A stretch of DNA of 64,000 bases from Oscillospiraceae bacterium (GCA_017540645.1 JAFYAQ010000010.1:25785-89784); one strand, 5' to 3'. Counted from the first letter of the stretch, positions 2-46,939 are shown. The notes: a model not told the origin generated them from the letters alone. A program made the numbers and translations.

Positions 2-1564
2 TTGCCAGTTATGAAAAAACACGTGAGACGGCTCGTTTCCGCGCTGGCGGTCTATGTCGTTCTGCTGTTTCTGCTGCTCTCGGCGGAGTCGGCAGACCCG
101 TCGGCCACTATCCGCAGTTTCTGGGACGCCGTGTGGTTTTCCCTGATCACGATGACCACGGTGGGCTACGGCGATCTGGCGCCGGTCACCCTGTTCGGCC
201 GGGCGATCGGGCTGTTCTTCGCCCTGTGCAGCATCGGCCTGTTGGCGGCGCTGATCGGTGTCGGGGTCACCTTGCTGAGCGGAGAATTCCTGCCGCGGCT
301 GCGGCTGCGCCTTGGGAAAGCAAAGCGCTGGTATGCCTTTCAGGAGGAAAACGAGGATGCGGCGGCCCTGGCCCGGGCTCTGCGCGGCGAGGACGCGGAC
401 TGTCTGCTGATCTTCCCCGCCGGGGAAAAAAAGCTTGTAGAGGGCCCCGGGGTGGAGCGTCTTTCCTGGACGCCCACGGAGCTGGTCCGGCTTCGGGGCG
501 GGACAGCCGGTCTGTGGCTGTTCTTCCTGGGCCGGAAGTATTGGGAGAACATCAACGGGGCCCTGGCGGCCTGCCCGGCGGGCGCCGTCTGCGTGTGCAT
601 GGCGGAGTCTCCCGGAGATCGCTTCCCCGCCAACCTGGTGCAGTTCAGCCCTCTTGAAGCCATGAGCCGAAGCTACTGGAAAAACCATCCGCTCAAAGAG
701 CGGGAGAAGACCGTGCTGCTGTTGGGATGCGGCGCAGCCGGCGGCGCTCTCCTGGAGCGGGCGCTGATGACCAATGTGTTCCAGCGGGGGCGGAGCACCG
801 CCTACCATGTATTTGACGACACGGCGGATTTCGCCGCGCTGCACCCGGAAGTGGTGCGGGCGCTGTCCGGGGAACATCCGGGTGAGGACCGCCTGATCTT
901 TCATACGGAGAGCTGGGCGGAAGCCCGGAACCTCCTGCAGAAGGCAGACCGTATCATTTTGGCTTACGACGACGAGAAACGGAACTTTGAGATCCTGGAA
1001 AAGATCCGGACCTGGTTTGAGAATGAGCCGACGGTGCACGTTTATCTGTCCGGGCACGTGCCCGGGGTGGAGAGCTTCGGTGGCCGGGATGAGAGCATGC
1101 GGCCGGAGTTTGTGATGAAGGATGAGCTCAACCGCCGGGCACGCCTGATGAACGATATCTACAACGAGGACTCCGGCTCCCCCACCGCCTGGGAGGAACT
1201 GAGCGCTTTCCTGCGGCAGTCGAATATCGCGGCGGCAGACCATCTGATCGTCAAGGCCCGCTTTCTGCTCCGGGAGGAAGGTCTGACGGAGCTCAGTGCT
1301 TCGGACTGCCGGAGGGCCTATGCCCGGTATCGGGAGCTCTATCCGACCCAGGCCGATCTGCTGCAGGAGATGGAGCACAGGCGCTGGATGCGGTTTTATC
1401 AGATGTACAACTGGCAGTACGCTCCGGTCCGGGACAACGACCAGCGGCGGCATCCGATGCTGCGTCCCTATGAGGAGCTGAGTGAAGCGGACCGAAGGAA
1501 GGACGCCTATGCCTGGGAGATGCTGGGCCGGCTGGGCGAAGAGAGAAGCCGGGACCATTCTTGA
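2..1564 (+). CDS. Two-TM K+ channel (TVGYGD filter) fused to Rossmann/RCK-like region and a C-terminal RyR domain
   Basis: 520-aa ORF open to the window edge (TTG at 2, ATG at 11; true start uncertain). M1 helix LVSALAVYVVLLFLLL, pore helix plus selectivity filter TMTTVGYGD, M2 helix IGLFFALCSIGLLAALIGVGV. GxGxxG (LLLGCGAAGG) near aa 236. The C-terminus (LMNDIYNE..WEELSAFLRQSNIAAADHL and EHRRWMRFYQMYNWQYAP..RRHPMLRPYEELSEADRRKD) fits the RyR-repeat pattern of bacterial RyR-domain proteins. Confidence 0.8.
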   Translation: MPVMKKHVRRLVSALAVYVVLLFLLLSAESADPSATIRSFWDAVWFSLITMTTVGYGDLAPVTLFGRAIGLFFALCSIGLLAALIGVGVTLLSGEFLPRLRLRLGKAKRWYAFQEENEDAAALARALRGEDADCLLIFPAGEKKLVEGPGVERLSWTPTELVRLRGGTAGLWLFFLGRKYWENINGALAACPAGAVCVCMAESPGDRFPANLVQFSPLEAMSRSYWKNHPLKEREKTVLLLGCGAAGGALLERALMTNVFQRGRSTAYHVFDDTADFAALHPEVVRALSGEHPGEDRLIFHTESWAEARNLLQKADRIILAYDDEKRNFEILEKIRTWFENEPTVHVYLSGHVPGVESFGGRDESMRPEFVMKDELNRRARLMNDIYNEDSGSPTAWEELSAFLRQSNIAAADHLIVKARFLLREEGLTELSASDCRRAYARYRELYPTQADLLQEMEHRRWMRFYQMYNWQYAPVRDNDQRRHPMLRPYEELSEADRRKDAYAWEMLGRLGEERSRDHS

Positions 1565-1579
1565 AAGGAGCGTGAACCC

Positions 1580-4042
1580 ATGGAACGTTTATTGCAGAGG
1601 ATTGCTAGCTTGTTCTGCGCCTCCACCCTGATGCTGTCTATCAGCGGCAGGGCCTTTGCGCAGGATGACGAGCAGCCGTTGGATCCGCCGGCGGAGATCC
1701 GGGAGACCGCTTCGGGGGATGCTTTGGGTACGCCCGATGCATCGGAGGTCCCGGAGAAAACGGACAATACCGACGAAGCTTCCATGGCTTTGCTCGCCGC
1801 GCCACAAACCGATACGGGGCTGACAGATCCTGACGTGCAAACAGACGGCGAGCCGAAAAGCGGCGAGGCGGATCAGAGCGGCGAGACCCAGGCGACGCCG
1901 GAGATCACCGTTGCCGGGACCAGCTTCTCCCCCGATGAGAACTCGAGCGGAAGCGGCTGGAGCTACGAGGCGGACAGCCAGAGCATCGTGCTTGTCAACT
2001 ATGACGGCGCCCGGCAGAGCATTCTCTCCACGGCCAGCGACGTCACCATCAAGATGGCGGGCGTGAACCGCCTGGCCGAGCTCTCGGTCGACGGCAACAT
2101 CAATCTTGTCGGCACCGGTGTGCTGCTCGTCGACAAGATCGAGATGACGGAAAACATGGCCCTCAATCTCCAGTCCAACAAAGAGATCTACGGCGAGGAC
2201 GGGGGCAGCGTGGCGGTGTTCCTCCTGCAGGATGACAACAGCTACCTGCTCATCAACGGCAGCGTGGACGCGATCCTGGACGAAGCCTATACCCTTCCCC
2301 AGGACGTGACGCTGGTGGTGCCGGACGGCTCCCGGCTGGTGCTGCAGAGCCTTGCCGTCGGCTGTCTCCTCACAGAGAAAGAGGAGAAAGTGGTCCGTTA
2401 TTCCACGAATAATGAGGATGAGGTCATCGATCAGCTGCGCAGCTTCGTCGAAAGCGAAGACGGCGGCACTCTGGATGTAGGAAACATCGATTTCTATTCC
2501 ACCTCCGCCAAGCTCACGATCCCGCAGAAGACAAAGCTGGTGATCAGCGAGATGGCCTCTATCCTCATGAAAAGCGTTAGACCGCGAACCTTTTCCTTTA
2601 TCGCGCCGGTGCTCGATGTGCAGGGGACGCTGGAGCTGAACGGCTCCGTCACGGGAGAAAGCTGGTATCAAAGCTTTGTCGTCCTCAACAGCGATCTCAG
2701 CGGCGAGGGCACCATCAGCAAAGCAGAGGTAAGCGTGAATGTGCCCCAGGATGCTCTGACGGTGAACGACGTCAATCTCCGGCTCAACGCGGGAACATCG
2801 GCCGGCGCCGCGGCGGACGGGGAAGACCCGGACATAACTCCCGCGATCGGCACGCTGACCATGTCCGATACCAATGTGCTGTCATTCAACAACAGCGCCG
2901 TCGGGGAGCTCGTTCTGCAGGACGGCGCCTCGGTTGACCTCCGGCGCCATGAGGGTGCCGACGTCCTGGCTCTGGGACAGATCAGCGGCAGCGGGACGGT
3001 CGGTTACGACGACGGCTCCTTTGCTGTCGGTTCTGTCGGGGCCGGTATCGCCCAGGATTTCGGCACCACCGGGATAACGACGTGCGGAGACGTGACATAT
3101 ATCTCCGGTCCCGACGGAGCGGTCCCCATTCCCACGCAAACGCAGGGCGGAACAATCCCGGTCGTCAACGTTTCCTTCGTGCTTCAAAACGCCACGAGCT
3201 TGATGGGCGGCGGTGTGCACAGCATTGTCTCCGAAAGCGAGTCGCAGGATAGCGAAAGCATCACTCTCAGCGGCGATACCGTAAGCTTTGCCTCCCTGGT
3301 CCAGCAGCTGCTTCCGACCGGCAGCGCGACACAAACTGTGGAGGTCTATACGGTCGGCGTGGACGGGATACTGGCGACCATCAAGCTGAGTTCAAGGGAT
3401 GCGGACGACCAAACGGAGATCCCGGTCGCTTCGATCCGCCTGATCCGTACGGTGGAATCCACCACGGAAGATCTCGGTACCGGCGGCGGCGCCTCCACCT
3501 CTACCAACACGAGCTATACCGGCAGCGGTGTGCTCGGCGGTCCCGGCGCGGGTTCTGTTCCCGGCGGCACCCAGTTTCCGATCCTAAGAGGAGCCGGCAT
3601 CCACAGGACCCAGCCCAACGACGACGATCCATCCAATCACAGCGGCGGGCAGCAACTGGGGCAAACGAATACGGAGGCTGATCAGGGCCTGTCGGATGCG
3701 GATTTCTGGGTCGAGCCGGATGAGACGGGGACATGCTCCGTCCTCTGTGCCGTGGATGGGGAGGCGACCCTGAAGGCCCACGGCGGGGTGGCGTCGGTCA
3801 GCATGAGCTATACGCCGCCGGAGGGCAGCACGGCAAAGAGCTTCTATGTGGTTTTCCGGGACAGCAGCGGAACGCTCCGGGCCTTCCGGGCGAGCTACTC
3901 CCGGCTGAGATCCGAGCTGAGCTTTGAGGCAGAGTGTCTGGGCCGCTTTGTGGTCGTGGCCTTTGACTTTGACGGAGAGGTCTTCTCCGACGCTTTCTAT
4001 GAGGCGCTTGCGCAGCGGGAAGAGCTTTCGGCCCTCAGCTGA
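1580..4042 (+). CDS. Large secreted protein, no recognisable domain (orphan)
   Basis: 820-aa ORF with RBS AAAGGAG 10 nt upstream of the ATG. N-terminal signal-peptide-like segment (LFCASTLMLSISGRAFAQDD), then an acidic low-complexity region and long Gly/Ser/Thr/Val-rich repeats resembling beta-solenoid adhesins. No LPXTG motif or C-terminal TM helix seen. Confidence 0.7.
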   Translation: MERLLQRIASLFCASTLMLSISGRAFAQDDEQPLDPPAEIRETASGDALGTPDASEVPEKTDNTDEASMALLAAPQTDTGLTDPDVQTDGEPKSGEADQSGETQATPEITVAGTSFSPDENSSGSGWSYEADSQSIVLVNYDGARQSILSTASDVTIKMAGVNRLAELSVDGNINLVGTGVLLVDKIEMTENMALNLQSNKEIYGEDGGSVAVFLLQDDNSYLLINGSVDAILDEAYTLPQDVTLVVPDGSRLVLQSLAVGCLLTEKEEKVVRYSTNNEDEVIDQLRSFVESEDGGTLDVGNIDFYSTSAKLTIPQKTKLVISEMASILMKSVRPRTFSFIAPVLDVQGTLELNGSVTGESWYQSFVVLNSDLSGEGTISKAEVSVNVPQDALTVNDVNLRLNAGTSAGAAADGEDPDITPAIGTLTMSDTNVLSFNNSAVGELVLQDGASVDLRRHEGADVLALGQISGSGTVGYDDGSFAVGSVGAGIAQDFGTTGITTCGDVTYISGPDGAVPIPTQTQGGTIPVVNVSFVLQNATSLMGGGVHSIVSESESQDSESITLSGDTVSFASLVQQLLPTGSATQTVEVYTVGVDGILATIKLSSRDADDQTEIPVASIRLIRTVESTTEDLGTGGGASTSTNTSYTGSGVLGGPGAGSVPGGTQFPILRGAGIHRTQPNDDDPSNHSGGQQLGQTNTEADQGLSDADFWVEPDETGTCSVLCAVDGEATLKAHGGVASVSMSYTPPEGSTAKSFYVVFRDSSGTLRAFRASYSRLRSELSFEAECLGRFVVVAFDFDGEVFSDAFYEALAQREELSALS

Positions 4043-4081
4043 GCCATACAGAAAAAGCAAGATGAAAAGGGGGGTAAAGCC

Positions 4082-4927
4082 GTGGAACGCTTTGATATCT
4101 GCATTCTTTCCACCGGACCGGATGCGCCCTTCGCCCGAAAACTGGCAGAGAGCATCCGCCGCTACCGGCTCCCTTCGAACACGAAGCCGGCGGACCCCTC
4201 TCTTGACTACCGGCGGATCCTGCTCGACTGCCAGGACGAGCCCTTCGGCGAGGCGGTCCGCGTGCGGCTGGAAAACAGCCGGAATCTCGTGCTGCTCTGC
4301 TCGCCGAGAACGAAAAACGATCCGACGATCCACGCAAAGCTTGCCTCTTTCCGCGCCGGTCACGATCCGGAAAGGATCGTTCTCTGCATCGTGGAAGGCG
4401 AACCCGCGGATTCTTTTCCCGAGAGTTTCATTGAAAAGAAAACCGTGCAGCACATTCTGCCGGACATGAGCGTGGTCGAGCGGATCGAGACCATCGAGCC
4501 GGTCGCCGCCGACCTGCGCGGCGCCACCGAACGGATGCGCCGCACCGTGCTTCGCTACGAGACGGTGCGCATCACGGCTTCCGTCCTCGGCATGCACCCG
4601 GACGAGCTGGAGCAGCGTCACCGGAGCCGCCGGCGCCGGGCAGCCGCCGCGGCGCTGGCCGCGGTGGGCGTCGTATGCCTTGCCGCGGCGGGGATCTTCC
4701 TGCGCCTCGGTCTGATCGCAAGAGGCGAGGGAAGGATCGCCGAGGAACAGACGAAGCTGAGCCTCTCCATCGCTCACCGGACGATCGAAGAGCTGCCCGC
4801 CTCCTTTGCGGAGGATGAACAGGCTCTCGCCTATATCGACGAGGCGATCCAGAGCGCCCGCGAAGAGCTGGACGCGCTCGGCCTCGCAGACCGGATGGAC
4901 GAGGCGGAGACGGGAGGCGGCGCATGA
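4082..4927 (+). CDS. Membrane-anchored TIR-like protein (degenerate TIR, single TM, short coiled C-terminus)
   Basis: GTG start with AAGGGGGG 8 nt upstream. The N-terminus FDICILST..NLVLLCSPRTKNDPTIHAKLASF..RIVLCIVEG aligns block by block with the TIR of the next ORF, but lacks the Trp and Glu of the SxW..xE motif. Arg-rich stretch RHRSRRRR is followed by the TM helix AAAAALAAVGVVCLAAAGIFLRLGLI. Confidence 0.7.
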   Translation: MERFDICILSTGPDAPFARKLAESIRRYRLPSNTKPADPSLDYRRILLDCQDEPFGEAVRVRLENSRNLVLLCSPRTKNDPTIHAKLASFRAGHDPERIVLCIVEGEPADSFPESFIEKKTVQHILPDMSVVERIETIEPVAADLRGATERMRRTVLRYETVRITASVLGMHPDELEQRHRSRRRRAAAAALAAVGVVCLAAAGIFLRLGLIARGEGRIAEEQTKLSLSIAHRTIEELPASFAEDEQALAYIDEAIQSAREELDALGLADRMDEAETGGGA

Positions 4928-6981
4928 GCTTCCAATACGACTTCTTCCTCAGCTACCGCCACAAGCCTCTGGACGGGGAGATCACAAAAAAGGTCTTCAA
5001 TCTGGTGGAGAGCTATCACCTGCCCCGGGCCCTCCGGGCACAGGGCTGTGAGGACGTGCGCCGCGCCTTCCGGGATACGGAGGAGCTGCCCGTCAGCCGT
5101 ATCCTTACCGATACCATCGATCAGGCTCTCCGCTCCACCCGCTGCATGATCCTGATCTGTTCCGTCGACACGCCCAGTTCCGAATGGGTAGACCGTGAGG
5201 TCGCCACCTTCATTCGGCTCGGAAGGGCGGAGCACATCTATCCGCTGCTGATCTCGGGCGATCGTGAGCGTTCCTTCCCGGCCTCCCTGAAGCTGGTGCC
5301 CGACATCGAGAGCCGCATCATGGACATCCGGGTGCCGGACAACCCGGTCAAAAAGATGATGGCAAAGGCGGAGACGGAGCTTCTGCGCGCCATTGCGGAT
5401 GTTGCCGGCTGCACGGAAGCGGAGCTTTTGCGGGAACACAAGCTCCGGAAGAACCGCCGTTTTGCCTTCCGGGTCGCTGCGGGGGTCGGAGCCTTTGCGG
5501 CGGTGGCCGGGATCTCCCTGGGCCTGATGAATCTGGCACAGAGCTACCGCGACGCCGCACAGAAACGGGAAGCGGCTTCCATGCGCATCCTCAGTGAGCT
5601 GACCTATTCCCTGCCGGACCATTTGACCAATGTGCCGGGGGCTTACAGCCGCATCGCCGGGATCCTGGAGCGCAACACGGAGGACATCAACGCCATCATG
5701 CGCCTTTCTTCGGACCGGGACAGCGCAGAGCGGGAAGTCGCGGCCAACTATGAAAAGCTTGCCAACGCCAGCACGGTACTCGGCCGCTTCGACGCTGCCT
5801 TTGCCGCGCAGGAGAAGGCCATCCGGAGTATTGAAGAACTGCAGCTCCGAAATGTGGAAGGGAGCGAGGAGGCCCTCGCCTCGGCGTTTAACAATCTGGG
5901 CAATCTTTACATAAGCGCGGGGCGCTATGAGGATGCGGCGGAAGCCTATCGGCTCGCCATTGAGCGGCAGACGGCCTCCGGAGGAGACGAGCGGACCCTG
6001 GCCGAGTTTTATATGAACGCCGGCGCCAACGCCACCGAGCTGGGAAATATGGAGGAGGCCGAGCGCTGCTTTGACTCCTGCATCGCGCTGCTGACAAACA
6101 CGGGAGAGGATAAAGGCCTCGACATTGCGGCTCAGGTCCACCTGGACTACGGGGTCATGCTCCATCGGGAGGGAAAATACGCCGACGCGGAAGAGCATCT
6201 GCGCGAGGCCTGCCGTTCCTGTGAAAAACTGCTCGCGCAGGTCGATACCAGACAGTACAGGGCTTTATATGTGAAGGCAATGAGCATGCTGGCGGTCATC
6301 TTGACGGATGCGGGAAAGTTTGAAGAGGCAGATGAAAACTACTCCCTCGCCATCCAGAAGGCGGAGGAGCTGGCGCAGGATCAGGAAAATGCCGAATATC
6401 AGCGGAACCTGGCGCAGCTGTGCAACAATTTCGCGCTGAGTCTCAACATGCGCGGCGATTACCGGGGCGCCGACACGCTGTATGAGAGGGCTGCGGAGAT
6501 CAATCGTACGCTGGCGGAAAAAACCCTCGCCGCCTCCGACCGATCCGCAGCCGCCCTGTCCCTGCTGAATCTGGGGGAAAACGCCTTCAAGCTGGGAGAC
6601 TATTCGCGCTCACGATCCTGTTTTGAAGAGGGACTGCAAATCTATCAGGCGACGGCGGACAGTTTGGGCGAGTACGATCGGGCCCAGTATCTGGCGTGGC
6701 AGTGCTACTACCTTCTGATCCATCAGCGGGATCCTCTCGGGGCTTTTGACGTGGGCTATGCGGCCTATGAACTGCAGCCGAAAAACGCCCTTGTCATGCT
6801 GAACCTTGGCTACGCCTGTCTCTACTGCGGCTATGACGAGGATGCGGATGCGCTGATCGGCGCGGTCGCGTCCCTGGGCGAGGGACAGGTGGAAACGATC
6901 TGCCGCGATCTGGAGGCCCAGCAGGCGGCAGGACTGACATCCGATCATATCCCGGCCCTGCTGGAAATGCTCCGCGGCTGA
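4924..6981 (+). CDS. TIR domain - single TM - TPR repeat protein
   Basis: ATGA start/stop overlap with the upstream ORF, GGAGG RBS. Canonical TIR N-terminus YDFFLSYRHKPLDGE, CMILICSVDTPSSEWVDREVATF (SxW..xE motif, Glu92 = GAG 5197-5199) and IYPLLISGD. KLRKNRRFAFR then TM helix VAAGVGAFAAVAGISLGLM. About 430 aa of TPR-like repeats follow (ALASAFNNLGNLYISAGRYEDAAEAY, LAQLCNNFALSLNMRGDYRGADTLYERA and others). Confidence 0.85.
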   Translation: MSFQYDFFLSYRHKPLDGEITKKVFNLVESYHLPRALRAQGCEDVRRAFRDTEELPVSRILTDTIDQALRSTRCMILICSVDTPSSEWVDREVATFIRLGRAEHIYPLLISGDRERSFPASLKLVPDIESRIMDIRVPDNPVKKMMAKAETELLRAIADVAGCTEAELLREHKLRKNRRFAFRVAAGVGAFAAVAGISLGLMNLAQSYRDAAQKREAASMRILSELTYSLPDHLTNVPGAYSRIAGILERNTEDINAIMRLSSDRDSAEREVAANYEKLANASTVLGRFDAAFAAQEKAIRSIEELQLRNVEGSEEALASAFNNLGNLYISAGRYEDAAEAYRLAIERQTASGGDERTLAEFYMNAGANATELGNMEEAERCFDSCIALLTNTGEDKGLDIAAQVHLDYGVMLHREGKYADAEEHLREACRSCEKLLAQVDTRQYRALYVKAMSMLAVILTDAGKFEEADENYSLAIQKAEELAQDQENAEYQRNLAQLCNNFALSLNMRGDYRGADTLYERAAEINRTLAEKTLAASDRSAAALSLLNLGENAFKLGDYSRSRSCFEEGLQIYQATADSLGEYDRAQYLAWQCYYLLIHQRDPLGAFDVGYAAYELQPKNALVMLNLGYACLYCGYDEDADALIGAVASLGEGQVETICRDLEAQQAAGLTSDHIPALLEMLRG

Positions 6982-6993
6982 GAGACGACAAAA

Positions 6994-7026
6994 GGACGGG
7001 ACCGCGGAGTGCTCCGCGGTCCCGTT
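6994..7026 (+). terminator. GC-rich hairpin after the TIR-TPR gene
   Basis: ggacgggaccgcggag / ctccgcggtcccgt inverted repeat 13 nt after the stop. There is no strong U-tract. A second weaker hairpin with a T-run lies at about 7045-7080. Confidence 0.5.
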
Positions 7027-7115
7027 CGATCATCCAAAATCCGACTGTTTTCCATAAAGCGAAAACAGCCGGTTCTTTGATATTTATAAGGCGCCGGTCA
7101 GGTCGCGCCCGAGAA

Positions 7116-8793: not shown

Positions 8794-9473
8794 AGCAGTC
8801 CCGGCAGTTCCCCGATGCTGCGGATCTCATAGTCCGCATGGGGCTGGGCGGGCCGGGGTTTTCCCTCCGGGTTATACCACACGGTGGGGATGCGGGCGTT
8901 GTTCCCGCCCCGGATATCGCTGGTCAGGGAATCCCCCACGATCAGCAGCTCCCCGGGAGACACATCCCCCAGGGCTTCCAACACCTTTTCAAAAAACCGG
9001 AGGGAGGGCTTCTCCGCCCCGATCTCCTCCGAGATGAACACTCCGTCCAGCAGATCGTCCAGCCCCGAGCGCCGCAGCTTGGGCCGCTGGACGTTCTTTG
9101 TTCCGTTGGTGACGGCGTACTGCCCCACCCGGCCCCGCAGGGCCTTCACGGTCTCCAGGGCCCCCGGCTCAAACGCGATGGTATCCGGCAGACGGTGCTC
9201 GTATTCCCGGGTAAACGCTTCGGCCAGACCGGGATCCAGACCGTAAAGTGTCAGAAACTCCCGATAGCGGCCCACCAGGATCTCCTCCCGGCTGTATTCG
9301 CCCCGCTCCAGCGCCTCCCACCACCGGAGGTTGATGGCGGAGTAATCCGCGATCATCCGGTCCGTGCACTCCCCCAGGCCGAAGAAGGCAAAGCAGGCGC
9401 GGATCGCGGCCCTCTCCGAGGCTTTGAAATTCAGCAAGGTCCCGTCCAGATCCCATAAGACAGCTTTTGTCAT
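8784..9473 (-). CDS. HAD-IA hydrolase, YjjG-like nucleotidase family
   Basis: MTKAVLWDLDGTLLNF (DxDGT motif I), VTNG, VGDSLTSDIRGG. Start at ATG 9473. Confidence 0.8.
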   Translation of the reverse strand: MTKAVLWDLDGTLLNFKASERAAIRACFAFFGLGECTDRMIADYSAINLRWWEALERGEYSREEILVGRYREFLTLYGLDPGLAEAFTREYEHRLPDTIAFEPGALETVKALRGRVGQYAVTNGTKNVQRPKLRRSGLDDLLDGVFISEEIGAEKPSLRFFEKVLEALGDVSPGELLIVGDSLTSDIRGGNNARIPTVWYNPEGKPRPAQPHADYEIRSIGELPGLLQI

Positions 9474-9675
9474 CGCTTCTCCCCGCAAAAAAGGAAACGG
9501 CCGGGGCCGCCATGCCCCGGCCGCTCATTTTGTAAAATAGTCTCACAGAGTTCGCCGCCGCAGCGGCAAAGGAGCTTCCATCGATTTTTCCCGGCGACAT
9601 GTGCGTCGGGAAAAACACTCTTCGGCCCGCAAACGTGCGAGCGCAGCGAGTGCGCTGCAGCGGGCCGCGGCCTTA

Positions 9676-9703
9676 TCAAAAAAGTGGCTGCGCCACTTTT
9701 TTG
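9676..9703 (-). terminator. Bidirectional intrinsic terminator after the glyoxalase gene
   Basis: caaaaaagtggc tgc gccacttttttg: a stem flanked by A-run and T-run, 10 nt beyond the stop at 9713. Confidence 0.75.
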
Positions 9704-9712
9704 AAATGCGTA

Positions 9713-10084
9713 TTAATCTCTGGTGGGCACGATCTCCAGCCAGTACCCGTCCGGATCCTGGATAAAGTAGATCCCCATGGTCGGATTCTCAAAGCAGATG
9801 CAGCCCATCTCCTCATGGAGGGCGTGGGCGGCGGCAAAATCATCGGTCCGGAACGCCAGGTGGAATTCCTCCTCGCCGATGTCGTAGGGCTGGGGATGGT
9901 CCCGAAGCCAGGTCAGCTCCAGCTCAAAGTCCGCCTGCTCGTTGGCCAGATACACGATGATATGCGCCCCCGCAGGATGGACCTTCCGCCGGACCTCCCG
10001 GAGCCCCAGGGCCTTTTCATAGAAGGCCAGGGACGCGTCCAGATCCCGCACGTTGTAGTTTTCGTGGATCATTTTGAATACCAT
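9713..10084 (-). CDS. VOC family protein / glyoxalase I-like
   Basis: 123 aa; HENYNVRDLDASLAFYEKALGL and GYWLEIV are typical of lactoylglutathione lyase-type VOC proteins. Confidence 0.85.
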   Translation of the reverse strand: MVFKMIHENYNVRDLDASLAFYEKALGLREVRRKVHPAGAHIIVYLANEQADFELELTWLRDHPQPYDIGEEEFHLAFRTDDFAAAHALHEEMGCICFENPTMGIYFIQDPDGYWLEIVPTRD

Positions 10085-10797
10085 GCTTTTCCCTCCTGCT
10101 CCAAGTCAAAAACCTGTCCCGGCCCGGTGATGGGCATGACCGCGTCCCGGTAGGGCGCGGACACGTTCATCTGCCGGAGCTTCTCAATGGTGTCATACCT
10201 CTCCCACAGGTGCATGGGGAAGGCCGCCTTCACCTGGGCCGAGCGCATCAGCGCGTCAAAGCCCATCCAGAAGTTGCCTCCCAGCCGGGGGTCCAGGGGC
10301 AGGAACGCCGCGTCCAGCTGCATCCCCTTGAGCTTCACGATCTGGGCGAAGAAGGCGTTCTTCATCTCCCGCTCCTCGGCGGCGGTGTCGTCCGGCCAGG
10401 CCCACCAGTGCAGGTCCCCGGCGTGATAGACGGTCCTGCCGGCATAGTTGACCACAAAGGCCACCCCCTGGTCCGTGGAACCCAGGGTGGTCACCGCCAT
10501 GGCCCCCTTCTTCCCCGCGGCAAGGGCCCGCCGCTGGTTGGGTCCCAGGCGCAGCGCCCGCTCCCCCGCCGGCGCGGGCGGGATATCGTCCGACAGGAGG
10601 AAGGTCCGCCCGGCGCGGCCCGACAGCTTTTCATAAATATCGGCGTCGTAGTGGTCGGTGTGGGCGTGGCTGATAAAGACAAAGAGCTTTTTGTCCTCCC
10701 CGATGGGGGGCAGCTCTCCCTCCGCCCAGTCGAAAAGGCAGGCGATATCCTCCCATTCCACCAGAAAACCGCTGTGTTTGATATAAGTAACGCGCAT
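10069..10797 (-). CDS. MBL-fold metallo-hydrolase
   Basis: 242 aa; the HxHxDH motif (ISHAHTDHY) and overall beta-lactamase-fold pattern. Confidence 0.8.
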   Translation of the reverse strand: MRVTYIKHSGFLVEWEDIACLFDWAEGELPPIGEDKKLFVFISHAHTDHYDADIYEKLSGRAGRTFLLSDDIPPAPAGERALRLGPNQRRALAAGKKGAMAVTTLGSTDQGVAFVVNYAGRTVYHAGDLHWWAWPDDTAAEEREMKNAFFAQIVKLKGMQLDAAFLPLDPRLGGNFWMGFDALMRSAQVKAAFPMHLWERYDTIEKLRQMNVSAPYRDAVMPITGPGQVFDLEQEGKAWYSK

Positions 10798-10930
10798 GAC
10801 CCAGACCCCCGAGCGCGTGGAAAAACCACATTATGTAAATCTATGGACAATCACAGTATAAGGTCTGAGCCGCTTCGACAGCAAGTTACAGTTTTGTCTT
10901 ATTTCTGGAAAATACAGGGAATTCCCGGGC

Positions 10931-10962
10931 AAAAAACTCCCCCCGCTCCGTAGCGGGGGAAG
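10931..10962 (-). terminator. Intrinsic terminator of the FAD-protein gene
   Basis: On the minus strand: cttcccccgct acgg agcggggggag followed by TTTTTT, 15 nt after the stop at 10977. Confidence 0.8.
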
Positions 10963-10976
10963 GTTCAACCTCTTGT

Positions 10977-12362
10977 TCAGTCCTCTTCGCAGCCGGCGAT
11001 GCGCCGGGCCACATACACGCCGCTGGCGGAGGCGTGGCTCAATGAGTGGGTAACGCCGCTGCCGTCCCCGATCACGTACAGGCCCCGGTAGCGGGTCTCC
11101 AGGTGAGAATCCAACTCCACCTCCATGTTGTAGAACTTGACCTCCACGCCGTAGAGCAGGGTGTCGTCGTTGGCGGTGCCCGGGGCGATCTTGTCCAGGG
11201 CGTAGATCATCTCGATGATGCCGTCCAGGATCCGCTTGGGCAGCACCAGGCTCAGATCGCCGGGAGTGGCCGCCAGGGTGGGGACCACGGTGCCCTCGTC
11301 GATGCGCTTCTGATTGCTGCGCCGGCCCCGCTCCAGATCGCCGAAGCGCTGGACGATGGCGCCGCCGCCCAGCATGTTGCTCAGACGCACGATGCTCTCG
11401 CCGTAGCCGTTGCTGTCCTTGAAGGGTTCGGAAAAGCGCTTGGACACCAGCAGGGCAAAGTTGGTATTCTCGGTCTTCAGCGCCTCGTCCTCAAAGCTGT
11501 GGCCGTTGACGGTGACGATGCCGTTGGTGTTCTCGTTGACCACGATGCCCCGGGGATTCATGCAGAAGGTGCGCACGTTGTCCTCGTATTTTTTGGTGCG
11601 GTAGACAATCTTGCTCTCATAGAGCTCGTCGGTGATGTGGGAGAAGATCACCGCCGGCAGCTCCACCCGGACCCCCAGATCCACCCGGTTGGACTTGGTG
11701 GGGATGTCCAGATGGGCGCAGATGCGCTCCATCCACTTGCTGCCGCTGCGACCCACGCTGACCACGCAGTCCCAGCACTGGGCGCTGCCCCCCTGCCAGG
11801 ATACGGTAAAGCCGCCGCCGGGCAGGGTGTCGATGCTCTCCACCTGGGTGTGGAAATAAAACTTCACATGCTCCCGCAGCCGGTCGTAGAGATTCTGCAG
11901 CACCACATAGTTGATGTCCGTGCCCAGGTGGCGCACGGAAGCCTCCAGCAGGGTGAGGGAATTCTGCATGCAGAGCTTTTTGAAGCGGGACCCGGCGGTG
12001 GAGTACAGGGTGGTGTTCTCCCCGCCGTTTGCCACGTTGATGCTGTCCACGTAGCGCATCAGCTCCATGGCCTTTTCCCGGCCGATGTATTCATAAAGAC
12101 TGCCGCCGAAATCGTTGGTCAGATTGTATTTCCCGTCGGAAAAGGCGCCGGCGCCCCCAAAGCCGCTCATGATGGCGCAGGTCTTGCACTTGATGCAGCT
12201 TTTCACCTTTTTCCCGTCGATGGGGCAGTGCCGCTCCTCCAGGGCGCTGCCGGTCTCGAACACGGCGATGCTCAGTTCCGGCTTTTTGTTCATCAGCTCC
12301 CAGGCCGTGAAGATGCCCCCCGGCCCCGCGCCGATGATGATAACGTCATATTGCTTTCCCAT
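10977..12362 (-). CDS. NAD(P)/FAD-dependent oxidoreductase (COG2509-like)
   Basis: 461 aa; N-terminal dinucleotide fold YDVIIIGAGPGG, a Cys-rich segment CPIDGKKVKSCIKCKTCA, C-terminal GDGSG. Confidence 0.8.
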   Translation of the reverse strand: MGKQYDVIIIGAGPGGIFTAWELMNKKPELSIAVFETGSALEERHCPIDGKKVKSCIKCKTCAIMSGFGGAGAFSDGKYNLTNDFGGSLYEYIGREKAMELMRYVDSINVANGGENTTLYSTAGSRFKKLCMQNSLTLLEASVRHLGTDINYVVLQNLYDRLREHVKFYFHTQVESIDTLPGGGFTVSWQGGSAQCWDCVVSVGRSGSKWMERICAHLDIPTKSNRVDLGVRVELPAVIFSHITDELYESKIVYRTKKYEDNVRTFCMNPRGIVVNENTNGIVTVNGHSFEDEALKTENTNFALLVSKRFSEPFKDSNGYGESIVRLSNMLGGGAIVQRFGDLERGRRSNQKRIDEGTVVPTLAATPGDLSLVLPKRILDGIIEMIYALDKIAPGTANDDTLLYGVEVKFYNMEVELDSHLETRYRGLYVIGDGSGVTHSLSHASASGVYVARRIAGCEED

Positions 12363-40119: not shown

Positions 40120-40295
40120 CGTCAAAAGCAGACGCGGTTTCCCGCGTCTGTGAACGTGCTTCCGGTTCCGGCAGAAGCGCTGTCCCTCCCCCATGTATCT
40201 GACTGATCCCCTTTTCGGGGCTTCACAGTGACCGACTCGCCGGGAATTGCACCCGATTCCATGCTCCGCGCAAAGCGGACGGAGAGAGACATCCT
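40120..40295 (-). promoter_or_regulatory. Cobalamin riboswitch-like leader with intrinsic terminator
   Basis: Minus strand: GGAATCGGGTGCAATTCCCGGCGAGTCGGTCACTGTGAAG (core GGTG..AA..CC..ACTGT), B12-box-like AGTCAGATAC, then cagacgcgg gaaa ccgcgtctg + CTTTTG. It lies directly upstream of the cbiF stub. Confidence 0.6.
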
Positions 40296-40334
40296 TTTAT
40301 TTTTTTGCTATTGTAGCACAAGTAAACCCCTTTG

Positions 40335-41231
40335 TCATTCCTTTTCTTTCGCCGCTATTGTTTCTTTTGATTTGGAAATCGCAAGGATCATTATGGCCGC
40401 AAGGATCGCCGCGATACCAAATACCGCATGGATCGATAGTTGTTCGTTCAAGAGGCTTGCCCCAACGATAACGCTTGTGATAGGTTCCAGTGTACTGGCA
40501 ACAGCGGATGATTGCGCGTCTGTGTACTGCGTCCCAATGGCAAAGAACGCAGAGCCAAAAACGGCAATGACAAAATCGGAGAGCAACAGGACCAACCATC
40601 CGATGCCTGTCACCGATGTAGAAAAGCCGCGAGTGAATACGCCGTATACGGTGATCATAAAAAAGCTGCCTATACCAACGAAAAAAATAACCTGTCCGGA
40701 GTCGAGAGGAGAGAAGTCAGTTTTATTCAATATAACGATATAGCATCCCCATGTAATACTGGATAAAAATGCTATCAGCAGACCGACTAAGCTTATTTTT
40801 TGAGCCGGAGCCTCCAACATAAGAAAAATGCCGACTGTGCATAAAGCAACGCACAGCGCTTTTACTTTTGACAATCTCTCATGAAATACGACCATACAAA
40901 TAAGTACGACTACGATGGGATACATGAAATGGATCGTTGTCGAGATCCCTGTCGGTAAATACTTATAGGAGGAAAATAAAAGCATTGGCGTGGCCGTTCC
41001 GACCGATGTCAACGCAAGCAGTTTTTTCCAATGATACTTATAGCCCCTCCAATGCTTATCTGCCTTCAGTGCGGCGGGAATAAACGTCAACGATAATATG
41101 GCATACCTGAATAAGACGACAAGAGACGCTGTAACTCCCTGAGAATAGCAAAATGTAACGGCGCTCGGCATCAAGCCGAAAACCACTCCGGAGATCATCA
41201 CCATATACAGGCCTTTTTTGGATCTGCTCAT
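40335..41231 (-). CDS. DMT/EamA family transporter
   Basis: 298 aa, ten hydrophobic segments arranged as two EamA-like halves. Lower G+C than its surroundings. Confidence 0.8.
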   Translation of the reverse strand: MSRSKKGLYMVMISGVVFGLMPSAVTFCYSQGVTASLVVLFRYAILSLTFIPAALKADKHWRGYKYHWKKLLALTSVGTATPMLLFSSYKYLPTGISTTIHFMYPIVVVLICMVVFHERLSKVKALCVALCTVGIFLMLEAPAQKISLVGLLIAFLSSITWGCYIVILNKTDFSPLDSGQVIFFVGIGSFFMITVYGVFTRGFSTSVTGIGWLVLLLSDFVIAVFGSAFFAIGTQYTDAQSSAVASTLEPITSVIVGASLLNEQLSIHAVFGIAAILAAIMILAISKSKETIAAKEKE

Positions 41232-41469
41232 TCTGCGTTCCCCCCCCTTACCAGTAATAATTATTCATATAAATTACAAAGTGAGCCAACGGTTTTCCGT
41301 AAAGCATTAATAAATGTCGCTCCACAGCTTTCAACACAAAATGGCCCTGCAGAATAATTGCGGGGCCATTTGCACAGGGGTGGGAAAGGATCATTAACGG
41401 TGCCGCATTCCATAGGAGTGATCCATTGGGTCATACAAAATGGTCCTCTCAATCGCCAATACTTTCCAT

Positions 41470-42867
41470 TCACTTCTTTCTGGATCTAAACCAATAGAAC
41501 AGAGCCCCCATCAGCAGCCATATCACCAACATAATATATGATGGGGCCGTAAGGCATCCCGGCATTCCGGGAACCAACAGCATCATCAAAAAGAACACCG
41601 AGAATATCCCCCCAAGAACGGAGGTAAAGGCAAATCCTATGTGAGTCCTTATTTCGTGGTCCTTCTTCATCGTGAGGAACGCGCACAGGTTTGTATATCC
41701 ATATCCGACCGCAGCGCCAATGGCAGACATATCGACGAACCAGCCAAGGGCCGTTCTGCCAAACCATGGACCTACAGCAGAAAACAGAAAACAAAAAATG
41801 ATCGCATTTGCCGGCGTTTTGTATCTGTGATGGAGCTTGCCAAACCAGGCGGGGATCGTTCCTTCCCCCGCCATGAAAAACAGCAATCTGCTTGTTGCCG
41901 TCAAAAAGCCGAGCATGCCCGTTAGTATCGCGCAGGAAATCGCAACGCCGAGGACGACCAGCCCGGGTTTGCCCATCAAAGCCTCTACGGCAGCGCCGAC
42001 TGCCCAGTCGTGTTGATTTATGAAAGCCGTCCAATCCGGTGAAACAGACGCTGTCACAAGTGTGTTGCAGGAGTAAACCGCACACCCGAACAAAACAGCG
42101 ACTACCATAATGCCGATGACTTTTTTTGTTGAGAAGTTGAACTCCTCAACCTCTTGGGGTATTGTTCCAAACCCCACATAAGCCCAAGGAGTAACGGCAA
42201 TCACAGCAATGATCCCGCGAGCAACTTCTTTGAGGTCTGGATCCGCGGCGGTTCCCCAAAACGGTTTCAGATGCTCCCACGAAGTGATGGGGCTGAACAA
42301 TGCAGAAATAACAATGATCAGGAAAGAAGTTGCAAGCGCTACCGCCATGATCGTGTCCACAAAGCCGGCTTTTTGTGCGCCTATGATGCTGAGAAACGAC
42401 AAAATGCCAAGAGCTGCAATCCCCAGCAAAACCTCGCCCAAATAAATATCATATCCAGCTACCGAGTACATTTTCCCAAATTGAAAAACGCCAAAAAACA
42501 GCTTTCGACTCATAAGGCCCAATGCGGTAGAGTTCATCGGAGCATTGGTAAGGAAAGCCAGGGCAAGCAGCCACGCACACCAAAAAGCGTTTTTGGGACC
42601 TAACAGCAGTCTTGTATAAGTAAATTCACCTCCGCCCTGCGGATACTTTTTTACCATGTAGCTGTAGCTGAATGAAATGACGATCATAATGATCGCACCG
42701 ATCGCCATGGCAACGACCGTGCCCAACGTACCGGCTGTTGGCAGAAATGTGGTGCCCGGCATCATAAAAGCGCCCCACCCGATGATGCATCCAAACGCTA
42801 AAGACCACACGCTCAGAGGATTCAGACTTTTTTCAAAGCCGGAGTCATTTTTTATTTCTTCACTCAT
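41470..42867 (-). CDS. APC family amino acid permease
   Basis: 465 aa; SLAFGCIIGWGAFMMPG and a 12-TM layout. Confidence 0.8.
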   Translation of the reverse strand: MSEEIKNDSGFEKSLNPLSVWSLAFGCIIGWGAFMMPGTTFLPTAGTLGTVVAMAIGAIIMIVISFSYSYMVKKYPQGGGEFTYTRLLLGPKNAFWCAWLLALAFLTNAPMNSTALGLMSRKLFFGVFQFGKMYSVAGYDIYLGEVLLGIAALGILSFLSIIGAQKAGFVDTIMAVALATSFLIIVISALFSPITSWEHLKPFWGTAADPDLKEVARGIIAVIAVTPWAYVGFGTIPQEVEEFNFSTKKVIGIMVVAVLFGCAVYSCNTLVTASVSPDWTAFINQHDWAVGAAVEALMGKPGLVVLGVAISCAILTGMLGFLTATSRLLFFMAGEGTIPAWFGKLHHRYKTPANAIIFCFLFSAVGPWFGRTALGWFVDMSAIGAAVGYGYTNLCAFLTMKKDHEIRTHIGFAFTSVLGGIFSVFFLMMLLVPGMPGCLTAPSYIMLVIWLLMGALFYWFRSRKK

Positions 42868-43034
42868 GCATAATCTCCTATATAGCTCTATGATACGGAG
42901 CCTTGCGTTTTTATGGTTCCTTCGCCCTGAAAATATCGACTCATTTTAAAAACGCAAAAACTGGCCCGATCGGATCCTTTTTTGAACAAGCGGCGGCACA
43001 ACAAGATGTTGGCCGCCGCCTAACGGGTATGTAA

Positions 43035-44159
43035 TCAGTACCAATAGGGAGAATCCCAGAGTTTCAAATGTGTGCCGAGACCAAGTTTCATAGCCCTGTC
43101 ATAGCAGTCATACGACCAGGCGATATCTTCTGTGGGCATTCCTCCCGTCATAAGGCAAATTCGTTCTTCTTTGCTCTTTCTTCCGATGATCTTCCCGCAA
43201 GCACAGTCGCCAAGGCTGGGGATCTCCGCCGCCGGCGGCAGCTTGCCTTCGTCAATGAGCTTATAGATGCCGCCGCCCATCATGCCCTTATAGGCTTCTT
43301 CGATAGAGCAATTCGACCTTCTGGCATCATCCATATAAGCAACGTGCATTTTGGGATTATCGAAGAACGTAGAGCTGTTGACGTGATATGACTCATCGAT
43401 TCTTCCGGAGCCGGTAAAGATGATAAGCGAACCAGGCTTGAGCCATTCATCCCTGATTTCAACCGGTTTGAGCCGCGATGTAGCGGAAGAAATGATATCA
43501 GCACAAGAAATGGCGTCTGCCATCGTTTCACAGACCACATAGTCAAGGCCGTATGTTTCTTTTGCCCAACAGCCGAGTTTTTCGCCGGCTTCGGGATTGA
43601 GGTCAAAAATGCGGATGCACCTGGCGTTCTTTGCGGTGGCCATCATTCCCTGAAGGCAGGCTTTTTGGATAGGCCCGGCCCCGATAAGTCCGATGATCTC
43701 CGCATCGGGATTTGCCAAATACTTTACGCCAACGCCGGGAATGGCGCCGGTCCTGACGGCGCTGACAATGTTTGCCGAGCAGAGGGCGATCGGCTCACAA
43801 GTGTCAACATCGTTGAGCATGATCATCAGAATGCTGCGAGGAAGACCCCGGGCGGGGTTTGCCACATTGGACCCGTACCATTTTTCTCCGGCGACTTTGA
43901 ATCTGCCGCCGAGATAACCGACCATTGCCATAAAACGTCTGTCCGGTCCGGCTGCAGGCATCCCCTCAAACTCCGGGTGTTCCGGGAAATAAACCTTTAT
44001 GCCATGTTCGTTACCGTTGGGGCCTCCCATCAGGTAATCCCCCTGGCCGAGCAGCTTGAACATCTCATCCATCACTTCAACGCATCTCTCTGAATCCAGT
44101 GCGCCCGCTTGGATCATGTCCTGCTCGCTCAAATAGATAAAGTCAGTACGTTTTCCCAT
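43035..44159 (-). CDS. Ornithine cyclodeaminase / mu-crystallin family protein
   Basis: 374 aa; IGLIGAGPIQKACLQGM Rossmann motif and the OCD-family N-terminal pattern. Confidence 0.7.
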   Translation of the reverse strand: MGKRTDFIYLSEQDMIQAGALDSERCVEVMDEMFKLLGQGDYLMGGPNGNEHGIKVYFPEHPEFEGMPAAGPDRRFMAMVGYLGGRFKVAGEKWYGSNVANPARGLPRSILMIMLNDVDTCEPIALCSANIVSAVRTGAIPGVGVKYLANPDAEIIGLIGAGPIQKACLQGMMATAKNARCIRIFDLNPEAGEKLGCWAKETYGLDYVVCETMADAISCADIISSATSRLKPVEIRDEWLKPGSLIIFTGSGRIDESYHVNSSTFFDNPKMHVAYMDDARRSNCSIEEAYKGMMGGGIYKLIDEGKLPPAAEIPSLGDCACGKIIGRKSKEERICLMTGGMPTEDIAWSYDCYDRAMKLGLGTHLKLWDSPYWY

Positions 44160-44178
44160 TTTGTTCTCCTTTATGGTA

Positions 44179-45549: not shown

Positions 45550-45767
45550 GATTTTTTCCCCTTTCTAAAATAGTCACAAGGCCCTTGTGTAGTACAAAAT
45601 AACACATTTATAGGTTCCTGTCAAGCTTTCCTCTATGTATTTTATTACAAAATAATTTATATTTAAGGGAAGCTCTGTTTTTTGCTTGTTTTCGGTTCCC
45701 CTTGCATTTTGTTGTGTCACGTTGTAAAATATTTTAGATAATTACTAAATATATCTTACAATTACTG

Positions 45768-46622
45768 ATGGTGCTTCCTATGACTATTCACCAGATAATA
45801 AAAGAAAAATTTCCCGATTTAACAAAGTCCGAGAGAAAAGTGGCTTCATTTTGTCTTGGCCATTTTGTTGATTTTTCTGTTTTGACACTTATTGAGCTGT
45901 CAAATTTGATTGGAACCAGTACGACCACTGTTATTCGGTTTTGCAATCATCTGGGGTTTGATAGTTTTAAAAACTTCCAGACTTGCCTTAAGAATGAAAT
46001 AAATATAATGCCCACTTTGAGCGAGCGCTTTCAACTCTCACTCAAAGTGGACGCCGACTCTGTTTTTACCAATACGATCAGTCACAGTGTCGAGTGTATT
46101 GAATCCACTTTCTCTTCCATAGACTTTGAGAAGATCGATCAGGTCGTTGATGAGATCAACCATGCAAGGCGCGTATTTCTTTTCGGTATGAAAGAATCAC
46201 AAGCCCTTGTTCATTACGCATACACCCGTCTATATGATATTCGCGGCGATGTATTTTTATTGGACTCTATTTACAGCGGCGACGCGGAGATCGCACTTGA
46301 TATTAATTCAAGTGATATTTGTATTGTTTTTCTTTTTCATCGATACACATATACTTCTGTAAAAACTCTTCCTTTCTTAAAGTCGCGAAATGCTAAGGTT
46401 GTTCTTATTACGAATTCTCCTTCGGAATCTATTGAACAATATGGAGATAGTGTCATTTGCTGTGATGTGAGCGGTATCGGAATAAAGAACTGTTATGCTG
46501 CTCCGATCTGTCTTTGCGACTGTATTGGGAACAAGCTGGCCTCCTTAAATCCGGAAAAGGTGCAAAACCGTACAAATGAGCTTGAATTATTATATAAGAA
46601 CTATTCTTTTTTAGGCAGTTAA
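45768..46622 (+). CDS. MurR/RpiR family transcriptional regulator
   Basis: HTH_6 N-terminus (LTKSERKVASFCL..LIELSNLIGTSTTTVIRFCNHLGF) followed by a SIS domain. The start could be ATG 45768 or 45780. Confidence 0.85.
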   Translation: MVLPMTIHQIIKEKFPDLTKSERKVASFCLGHFVDFSVLTLIELSNLIGTSTTTVIRFCNHLGFDSFKNFQTCLKNEINIMPTLSERFQLSLKVDADSVFTNTISHSVECIESTFSSIDFEKIDQVVDEINHARRVFLFGMKESQALVHYAYTRLYDIRGDVFLLDSIYSGDAEIALDINSSDICIVFLFHRYTYTSVKTLPFLKSRNAKVVLITNSPSESIEQYGDSVICCDVSGIGIKNCYAAPICLCDCIGNKLASLNPEKVQNRTNELELLYKNYSFLGS

Positions 46623-46881: not shown

Positions 46882-46939
46882 TACTGCTCGGTGCATACGG
46901 CCAAAAAGGGAGAGCCGCCTGATGGCGGCCCTCTATTAT

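Follow-up and report, generated by a model that had tools for sequence, protein, structure and literature searches.

A five-gene operon of gut Clostridia, whose last four genes stand at the start of a 64,000-nucleotide (nt) stretch of DNA from an Oscillospiraceae bacterium (metagenome-assembled genome GCA_017540645.1, JAFYAQ010000010.1:25785-89784; this whole stretch is hereafter called the window), looks from its predicted proteins like a new bacterial signalling pathway that leads from TIR domains to an ion channel. The transcription unit most likely comprises the genes of P624 (a membrane protein of 624 amino acids, aa), a K+ channel, a secreted protein (ORF2) and two TIR-type proteins (ORF3 and ORF4). 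We give somewhat better than an even chance to the view that these genes would together constitute a transmembrane TIR signalling pathway with K+ flux as its output. The idea that the output of the TIR domains is read by the RCK/RyR part of the channel had been put forward in an earlier reading of the sequence alone (the sequence-only reading), and appears better founded now, both through the linkage of TIR genes to the channel and through the conservation of RyR residues that are predicted to form a ligand pocket.

The channel–P624 pair and its RyR repeats

The four open reading frames (ORFs) visible on the plus strand lie at 11-1564, 1580-4042, 4082-4927 and 4924-6981, with gaps of 15 nt and 39 nt and one ATGA overlap; the gaps and the overlap are those described in the sequence-only reading. 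Each of them is conserved as a gene in other contigs, and they are therefore not chance ORFs. Shine-Dalgarno motifs were present upstream of ORF2 (AAGGAG, 1565-1570), ORF3 (GGGGGG) and ORF4 (GGGAGG); a ribosome-binding site had also been credited to the channel gene, but that one lies beyond the window. The earlier description of a four-gene module had to be extended, since in two contigs 98% identical to the window (L001/L002, namely ERZ28653687 scaffold_6634 and GCA_017526605.1 JAFXRD010000013) a fifth gene, P624, precedes the channel gene, and its end (...CQL-TGA) overlaps the channel start codon as ATGA. Bases 1-14 of the window (plus strand) correspond to the 3' end of P624, with the stop codon at 12-14, and the remainder of the module is cut off by the window edge. 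The promoter region is likewise situated 5' of P624 and beyond the window; an element of TGnTATAAT type is found there, together with a terminator-like hairpin that belongs to the gene before. The TTG at position 2, from which the channel ORF had first been counted, was rejected as a start codon and is a window-edge artefact: all 28 aligned orthologs, of ~512 aa, begin with MKK or MKR, and the channel starts with the ATG at 11 (MKKH...).

The channel gene (11-1564, plus strand) encodes 517 aa, in which a pore of two transmembrane (TM) helices is followed by a tandem of RCK-like Rossmann domains and, at the C-terminus, by one RyR repeat. Pfam recognised Ion_trans_2 (9e-15) and RyR (32.2 bits against a cut-off of 27.4). 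The channel orthologs (at least 120 of ~512 aa) were represented by an alignment of 28 sequences, in which the selectivity filter TTVGYGD (residues 49-55; 155-175, plus strand) is invariant; among related channels, TTVGYGD occurs in 51 of 54 and STVGYGD in three. In an AlphaFold2 model built on the 28-sequence alignment (predicted local distance difference test score, pLDDT, 85.9; predicted template-modelling score 0.79), the 2-TM pore is followed by two alpha/beta domains, and the C-terminal domain is helical. The tandem RCK-like domains were placed at residues ~107-225 and 234-356 (329-1078, plus strand) by the secondary structure of this model and by Foldseek matches, and the second of them, RCK2, carries GCGAAG (GxGxxG) at residues 239-244. 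The best Foldseek matches to the model were GsuK (E 7e-6), the TrkA ring (6e-4), Slo1, CASTOR and MthK. With its TVGYGD filter and two Rossmann-type cytoplasmic domains forming a predicted gating ring, the channel is, as modelled, a GsuK-like tandem-RCK K+ channel that ends in a single RyR repeat.

P624 combines four N-terminal TM helices with tandem RCK-like domains and an RyR-like repeat. It has no K+ filter, and an invariant Y-G-x-G-Y loop lies among its N-terminal hydrophobic helices. Comparison of the channel and P624 profiles by hhalign (probability 97.9, E 3.9e-13) aligned channel residues 84-497 with P624 residues 112-590. Judged from this alignment and from the overlapping start and stop codons, P624 is a paralog of the entire cytoplasmic module of the channel and is translationally coupled to it. 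The shared module is rare, with 165 matches at E<=1e-30 among 1.84 billion representatives. The 4-TM domain of P624 (residues 1-130; L002:8130-8520) has as further invariant positions R72-M73-F74-x-G76, W99 and H102, besides the loop itself (Y48-G49-x-G51-Y52), and resembles no Pfam family; it may be a degenerate pore, a second ion path or a mere anchor.

The C-terminal domain of the channel (1148-1561, plus strand) was identified as a Repeat12-type RyR domain by Pfam, phmmer and tblastn. In a phmmer search of PDB, the last 140 residues matched RyR1-3 (E down to 3e-15, for RyR1), an RyR-like protein of B. thetaiotaomicron and, at E 1e-7, a 139-aa RyR-domain protein (35tm_A) which is probably the phage protein RyDEP; for the alignment, the phage genes themselves were taken instead. 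These were found directly when the RyR segment was used in tblastn, with E values of 2e-5 for RyDEP and 3e-5 for RyR Tad. RyDEP (DyoEdafos gp78) uses residues H75, W78, H100 and D117, and H75 and D117 are also its catalytic dyad (PMC13232231, 2026 preprint). RyR Tad (vB_PatP_CB1 gp68) binds 3'-cyclic ADP-ribose (3'cADPR) with a Kd of 43 nM, as well as 2'cADPR and cADPR, and its ligand residues are H129/W132, K147/H154 and K170/D171 (10.64898/2026.06.04.730250). When aligned, RyDEP H75/W78/H100/D117 fell on channel H456/W459/H481/D498, with K497 opposite K116 and K170, and both the identity and the spacing of the H-x-x-W...H...K-D residues were the same in the channel, RyDEP and RyR Tad.

The predicted pocket thus aligned with the phage proteins, comprising H456 (1376-1378), W459 (1385-1387), H481 (1451-1453) and K497-D498 (1499-1504, all plus strand), is invariant in the 28-ortholog alignment, and HWHKD is found in 45 of the 54 related channels. 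Six Lachnospiraceae channels have HWHER in these columns, which looks in the alignment like a one-residue shift of the R-D pair. The channel repeat scores above the gathering threshold of PF02026 with the pocket H, W, H and (K)D all present, and the equivalent P624 residues, H524/W527/H574/[KQR]601/D604, are kept in ~74 of 80 members. The RyR repeats of both proteins keep residues which in the phage proteins bind 2'cADPR, 3'cADPR and cADPR, and a pocket for such ligands is predicted in each. While RyDEP and RyR Tad act as dimers and the animal repeats are paired, the channel and P624 possess one repeat each; a channel-P624 heterodimer of repeats, which by analogy may mimic the two-fold Repeat12, is therefore an attractive idea. 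Among phage genomes, the Pseudomonas records MK511039-MK511051 (names beginning with vB_Pae_) contain ORFs matching the RyR repeat that are annotated as 'alanyl-tRNA synthetase' and are probably misannotated RyR-domain (Tad/RyDEP-like) genes.

The RCK domains open another route by which a TIR could act on the channel. Many bacterial TIRs deplete NAD+, and a TIR of this kind would be a plain NADase whose effect, a fall in NAD+/NADH or ATP, would be sensed by the RCK domains, the RyR repeat being structural. That Foldseek matches to the channel include a GsuK entry with NAD, its best structural counterpart, and a TrkA ring with ATP-gamma-S is consistent with such sensing, as is the conservation of GxGxxG in RCK2 of both the channel and P624. 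Nevertheless, conservation in the cytoplasmic part is highest in the RyR pocket, whose residues include precisely the set that contacts cADPR, whereas RCK1 is devoid of GxGxxG and RCK2 has no invariant acidic residue after beta2; moreover, a membrane-tethered, receptor-like TIR would be an odd means of draining a cell-wide pool. We regard NAD+-depletion sensing as improbable.

Receptor-like TIR proteins and their linkage to the pair

ORF4 (4924-6981, plus strand) consists of a TIR domain (residues 1-177), one TM helix (residues 184-202; 5473-5529) and a TPR array (residues ~265-650), and was matched by TIR_2, ThsB_TIR and TPR_12 of Pfam. Its catalytic residue, E92 (5197-5199), lies in SSEWVDRE and is invariant both in the ORF4 alignment and in all long TIRs, and a profile of 12 ORF4-type TIRs showed F8, S10, Y11, D17 and D51 to be invariant along with it. 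When compared with PDB, this profile matched TIRs of bacteria, plants and animals that act as NADases or form cADPR, namely 7uxr, AtTIR, Cat1, TcpB, tir-1/SARM1, ROQ1 and AbTIR. ORF3 (4082-4927, plus strand) comprises a TIR-like domain without the catalytic Glu, one TM helix (residues ~189-207; 4646-4702; N-terminal flank RHRSRRRR) and an outside tail of 65 aa. It was matched weakly by TIR_2 (E 0.056) and, in tblastn, matched an ORF4 ortholog at E 1e-6 across the TIR, the TM helix and the first helices. The catalytic Glu column holds K in ORF3 and R, F or C in its orthologs, Glu being absent from all short paralogs, and ORF3 lacks Trp as well as the FxSYRH strand. On these sequence features, ORF3 is a truncated paralog of ORF4 and is predicted to be catalytically dead. 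Such short paralogs were seen only beside ORF4-like long TIRs.

A point which the sequence-only reading had overlooked is the receptor-like topology predicted for these proteins. All complete membrane-anchored TIR proteins beside the pair have a single TM helix immediately after the TIR (~residues 175-215), and the flank of this helix on the TIR side is the more basic one in 32 of 33 cases, which by the positive-inside rule predicts a cytoplasmic TIR and an outside location of the C-terminal repeat region. The predicted outside domain differs among loci: it is a TPR array in the window and in L161, Sel1 in L014 and L163, a BspA-type LRR with DUF285 in L015, LRR_4 in L016 and BamB/PQQ-like beta-propellers in L117, L121, L145, L152 and L159, while that of L151 has no assignment.

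ORF2 (1580-4042, plus strand) is a secreted, beta-rich protein of 820 aa. Its signal peptide covers residues 1-27 (AFA|Q), and residues 28-103 and 632-707 form disordered linkers. Searches of Pfam, NCBIfam and PADLOC gave no match for it, and only 11 homologs were found at E<=1e-5. Its AlphaFold2 model, based on a multiple sequence alignment, had a pLDDT of 69.8 overall and of 85-95 in the beta-rich core, and a Foldseek search of this model against PDB and BFVD returned nothing at E<=1e-3. Faint resemblances to beta-helix adhesins and to a superantigen-like beta-grasp were considered, and no fold was assigned. ORF2-like proteins were seen in loci with an ORF4-like (TPR-type) TIR pair or in contigs ending before the TIR genes, and tandem duplicates of their genes are frequent, while others flank the TIR pair. 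Duplicates were located at L095:3888-9008, L098:13332-18452, L102:1110-6966, L116:1-2986, and L126:3251-5920 and 8800-11313. The TVGYGD channel with an RyR domain, the secreted orphan of 820 aa, the degenerate TIR with one TM helix and the canonical TIR with one TM helix and a TPR array, as the four products had been described from the sequence alone, all agree with these domain and structure searches.

An ortholog locus of 60% identity has the same five genes in the order ORF2-ORF3-ORF4-P624-channel. The TIR domain is the most conserved part there, with 83% identity against 60% for the channel, and ORF2 is the least conserved (27%, against 60-83% for the other parts of the operon), a fast divergence that suggests diversifying selection on the extracellular component. 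In more distant loci (33-40% identity), channel, P624 and TIR genes are all retained, though arranged and oriented differently. In total, the pair repeatedly has TIR genes beside it over a range of 33-98% identity, in several orders, on both strands and with at least five ectodomain types.

Metagenomes were scanned with a P624 profile, which yielded 80 further loci, and a census with hidden Markov models (HMMs) was taken of 86 non-redundant loci. The channel adjoins P624 in 53 of the 86, mostly with a 4-nt overlap and in some with the order reversed. A TIR ORF was found near the pair in all seven loci having at least 5 kb on both flanks, in 9 of 11 with at least 3 kb, and in 23 of 53 overall, many of these contigs being short. 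As a control, the same TIR HMM was run on the surroundings of 70 unrelated K+ channel loci (1.21 Mb) and of channels and P624 genes that stand alone (0.24 Mb), and gave no match in either. The 70 control loci came from a scan of genome contigs with the channel alignment, in which the TVGYGD pattern had drawn unrelated K+ channels and only L007-L015 proved to be true relatives. Linkage of RyR-channel and TIR genes, whose co-occurrence across genomes the sequence-only reading had asked to be checked, is frequent though not obligatory.

Solo genes were recorded as well: P624 stands alone in nine loci (L111, L112, L115, L122-L125, L129 and L139) and the channel in L007-L013; in both cases the HWH(K/Q)D pocket is intact and the neighbouring genes are housekeeping genes. 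Two loci, L119 and L121, have P624 with a TIR neighbour and no channel. They encode soluble proteins of 771-778 aa (L119:6026-8341 and L121:15038-17374) with an N-terminal 'FSCHPDD' TIR-like region, TIR_2 at residues 184-287 and TPR/Sel1 repeats, followed by ORFs of 682 aa and 399+ aa; L121 also encodes a TIR-TM-propeller protein. These two loci represent a different wiring of the same parts.

The proposed pathway, its alternatives and its genomic setting

In the pathway that we propose, a surface cue would be sensed by the TPR ectodomain of ORF4, with ORF2 and the tail of ORF3 probably taking part, and would cluster and activate the TIR domains. Through E92, the TIR would convert NAD+ into an ADP-ribose-derived messenger, most simply a cADPR isomer, which would bind the RyR pockets of the channel and P624, possibly paired in the manner of the two-fold Repeat12. 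The RCK gating ring would then move and the TVGYGD pore would open (or close), and the resulting K+ efflux and change in membrane potential would stop growth or relay the signal. Opening of a K+-selective pore leads to K+ efflux and hyperpolarisation, not depolarisation, and the membrane depolarisation first proposed for this system was dropped on that ground. The most specific version of the scheme, a Toll-like outside-in pathway of Clostridia in which an extracellular, envelope or phage-adsorption cue would lead through a cyclic ADPR-type messenger to a K+ channel gated by an RyR Repeat12, is advanced tentatively and stands clearly below an even chance. With regard to its role, we lean slightly towards envelope or environmental signalling over anti-phage or abortive defence.

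Several observations weigh against this proposal. The placement of the TIR inside and of the repeats outside is predicted from hydropathy and charge bias. PADLOC returned no system-level match, and in PADLOC and NCBIfam scans of all five proteins only weak matches to TIR and TPR were obtained. Housekeeping genes surround the module in the window, in L001/L002 and in L005. Six pairs with long flanks (L130, L131, L134, L137, L110 and L104) have no TIR, and solo channels of Lachnospiraceae and of L007, with intact pockets, are found without an adjacent TIR. Since solo channels and solo P624 proteins have an intact RyR pocket, its ligand may be an adenine nucleotide of housekeeping function or a compound made by no adjacent TIR. 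Finally, the catalytic dyad of RyDEP is conserved, and the RyR domain could degrade a signal and not sense it.

This last point can be developed into a distinct explanation, in which the RyR repeats of the channel and P624 would be RyDEP-like glycosidases that destroy the TIR signal, as an off-switch or for self-protection. The dyad H75/D117 is indeed present as H456/D498 in the channel and H524/D604 in P624. However, six of eight phage RyR homologs tested bound the signals, two sponge-type proteins with nanomolar affinity, and only DyoEdafos RyDEP cleaved them, although the residues are conserved in the others (PMC13232231). The fusion of the repeat to the end of an RCK gating ring also argues for allosteric control, and we hold the glycosidase explanation to be very improbable.

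The solo genes and the pairs without a TIR, together with their housekeeping neighbourhoods, would suit a system without any small-molecule coupling, that is, a housekeeping K+ system gated by adenine nucleotides, in which the TIR-TM-repeat proteins would be surface or scaffold proteins that lie nearby for reasons of their own or interact through protein contact only. RyR1 Repeat12 binds ATP/ADP and is a reported ATP/drug site (cited in 10.64898/2026.06.04.730250), in keeping with this possibility. Against it stand the recurrence beside the pair of TIRs with at least five ectodomain types, compared with none in 1.45 Mb of control DNA, the higher conservation of the TIR than of any other part of the module, and its invariant catalytic Glu. 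An uncoupled system appears to us rather improbable, and coupling through a TIR-made messenger is the reading that we retain.

Downstream of ORF4, a GC-rich hairpin of 13-15 bp (6996-7025; -32 kcal/mol, z -5.9) lies between convergent genes; the minus strand has the U-tract, and the plus strand an A-tract on the 5' side. The hairpin that had been taken to close the module is hence real, but its U-run is better oriented for the opposite strand. A HAD-hydrolase gene converges on ORF4 (8069-7116, minus strand) across an intergenic region of 134 nt, which holds a second terminator-like hairpin on the minus strand (7041-7072). The position of the U-run makes the hairpin at 6996-7025 at least as much a terminator of the HAD-hydrolase gene as of the module. 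It is probably a bidirectional terminator; the hairpin pair mainly terminates the HAD-hydrolase gene and may act both ways.

No mobile-element genes flank the module in the window, as had been noted from the sequence, or in L001/L002 or L005, nor does it sit in a defence island, which it had been proposed to look for; its flanks there are housekeeping throughout. In this context, a defence role is possible and is not indicated by the neighbourhood. Further along the window, a low-GC stretch (40200-47016; 0.47-0.50 against ~0.62) terminates at a tRNA-Arg(CCT) gene (46940-47016, minus strand). It carries genes for an EamA transporter, an amino-acid permease, an ornithine cyclodeaminase, a Glt symporter and an RpiR regulator. 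With this metabolic gene content, it was rejected as a defence or phage island and resembles a metabolic island next to a tRNA gene.

Comparison with known systems

The closest parallel is Thoeris (types I-XI), where, as here, a TIR with a catalytic Glu has an effector gene or candidate effector gene beside it; the Thoeris effector is activated by the TIR-made signal, and the RyR repeat here is predicted to bind such ADPR derivatives, so that the predicted logic leads in both from TIR through nucleotide signal to effector. The present TIR, however, spans the membrane once, carries a C-terminal array of 480 aa and has a dead-TIR partner, and is not a soluble ThsB. The effector would be a K+-selective tandem-RCK channel with a paralogous membrane protein, and the sensor an RyR repeat instead of a SLOG, Macro, SLATT, DUF2270 or DUF6650 domain. 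The genes form a five-gene operon, as opposed to a compact two-gene system, with no defence island and no PADLOC match. The statement of the sequence-only reading that the composition fits no known Thoeris, CBASS or Pycsar type holds, also with respect to the newer type X 'ion channel' Thoeris.

Type X appears, with its signal given as unknown, in a 2025 survey of 29 Thoeris configurations (10.64898/2025.12.03.692087), in whose supplementary files, as far as these are accessible, no RyR, TrkA or potassium effector category was found. Type X (ThsB + ThsK; Bacillus sp. BH32 and Vibrio sp. JCM 19052) resembles the module in having a TIR gene beside an Ion_trans_2-like pore gene. The Vibrio candidate effector differs in being a protein of 208 aa with a weak Ion_trans_2 match (E 1e-3, 'TLTYGG') and neither RCK nor RyR, and its TIRs are of another architecture; assignment of the module to type X was thus rejected. 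In the Vibrio locus (L087:2740-4468), ThsB genes for short, soluble proteins of 163 and 155 aa flank the candidate effector gene, and the adjacent topoisomerase, Toprim and NikA-like genes suggest a mobile element.

The module could also be an abortive-infection variant of Thoeris, in which the TIR would sense a phage component during infection and make a cADPR isomer, the RyR channel would be the suicide effector through which ion homeostasis collapses, and the ectodomains would do no more than anchor or localise the sensor, for instance where phages adsorb. The logic, a TIR plus an effector with a signal-binding domain, is the same, and these very signals are the targets of phage sponges and glycosidases with RyR domains; ORF2 is fast-evolving and duplicated, as an arms race would predict, and type X shows that an ion-channel effector can defend. 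Nonetheless, the neighbourhood offers no defence island, no flanking mobile-element genes and no PADLOC model match, inheritance of the module looks vertical within Oscillospiraceae, the survey contains no RyR or RCK effector in the accessible parts of its text and supplementary files, and a K+-selective pore would be a mild effector. On balance, we consider this variant unlikely and keep to the receptor-like pathway.

The repeats of the phage proteins RyDEP (DyoEdafos gp78) and RyR Tad (vB_PatP_CB1 gp68) belong to the same Pfam family, PF02026, and have the same spacing of ligand residues as those studied here. While the phage proteins, which overcome Thoeris as sponges or glycosidases, are small soluble dimers, the repeat here is the C-terminal gating module of a host channel, next to a TIR that presumably makes the ligand. 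If the proposal is true, the RyR repeat is a new host-side sensor, having been tied to cADPR isomers so far only through phage counter-defence. The occurrence of RyR-domain sponges in phages of many hosts would also be explained, since the fold may have been borrowed from host receptors for the same signals.

The channel shares with GsuK, MthK, YugO and TrkA/KtrA the tandem Rossmann-type RCK domains, preceded in the channels among them by a 2-TM TVGYGD pore. It differs from these RCK-gated proteins in its additional RyR repeat, in its obligate-looking, paralogous 4-TM partner, which is not a channel, and in the linked TIR genes. A ligand-gated, K+-selective channel would be a new effector class of bacterial TIR signalling. 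Our search of the accessible literature revealed no report on TIR-linked RyR-domain K+ channels or on bacterial TIR-TM-ectodomain receptors. As far as the predicted proteins indicate, the elements new to TIR-based nucleotide signalling would be the effector (a K+ channel), the sensor domain (an RyR repeat) and the receptor-like architecture of the TIR. Should its role not be defence, TIR/NAD+-derived messengers would be general bacterial second messengers linked to membrane potential.

Like Toll-like receptors, the TIR proteins described here combine a repeat ectodomain, one TM helix and a cytoplasmic TIR. In Toll-like receptors, an N-terminal LRR is followed by a C-terminal TIR, whereas here the order is inverted, with an N-terminal TIR (type II topology), and the TPR, Sel1, propeller and BspA-LRR ectodomains are not homologous to the LRRs of those receptors. 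If the prediction is right, these would be the first bacterial TIRs built as receptors, with swappable TPR, Sel1, LRR or propeller modules outside.

Similarly, in animal cADPR-RyR signalling as in the pathway predicted here, a TIR- or NAD+-derived cyclic nucleotide and a Repeat12-bearing ion channel come together in one pathway, although the pore of our channel is K+-selective and unrelated to that of the ryanodine receptor. By analogy, the likeness to both Toll-like receptor and RyR signalling would be functional and modular, and not a matter of orthology. If the proposal is true, Repeat12 would on ion channels be an ancestral module serving as cADPR receptor, and there would be a prokaryotic precedent, as well as a tractable model, for the long-disputed direct effect of cADPR on ryanodine receptors, in that a bacterial channel of 517 aa makes cADPR binding and gating through Repeat12 simply testable.

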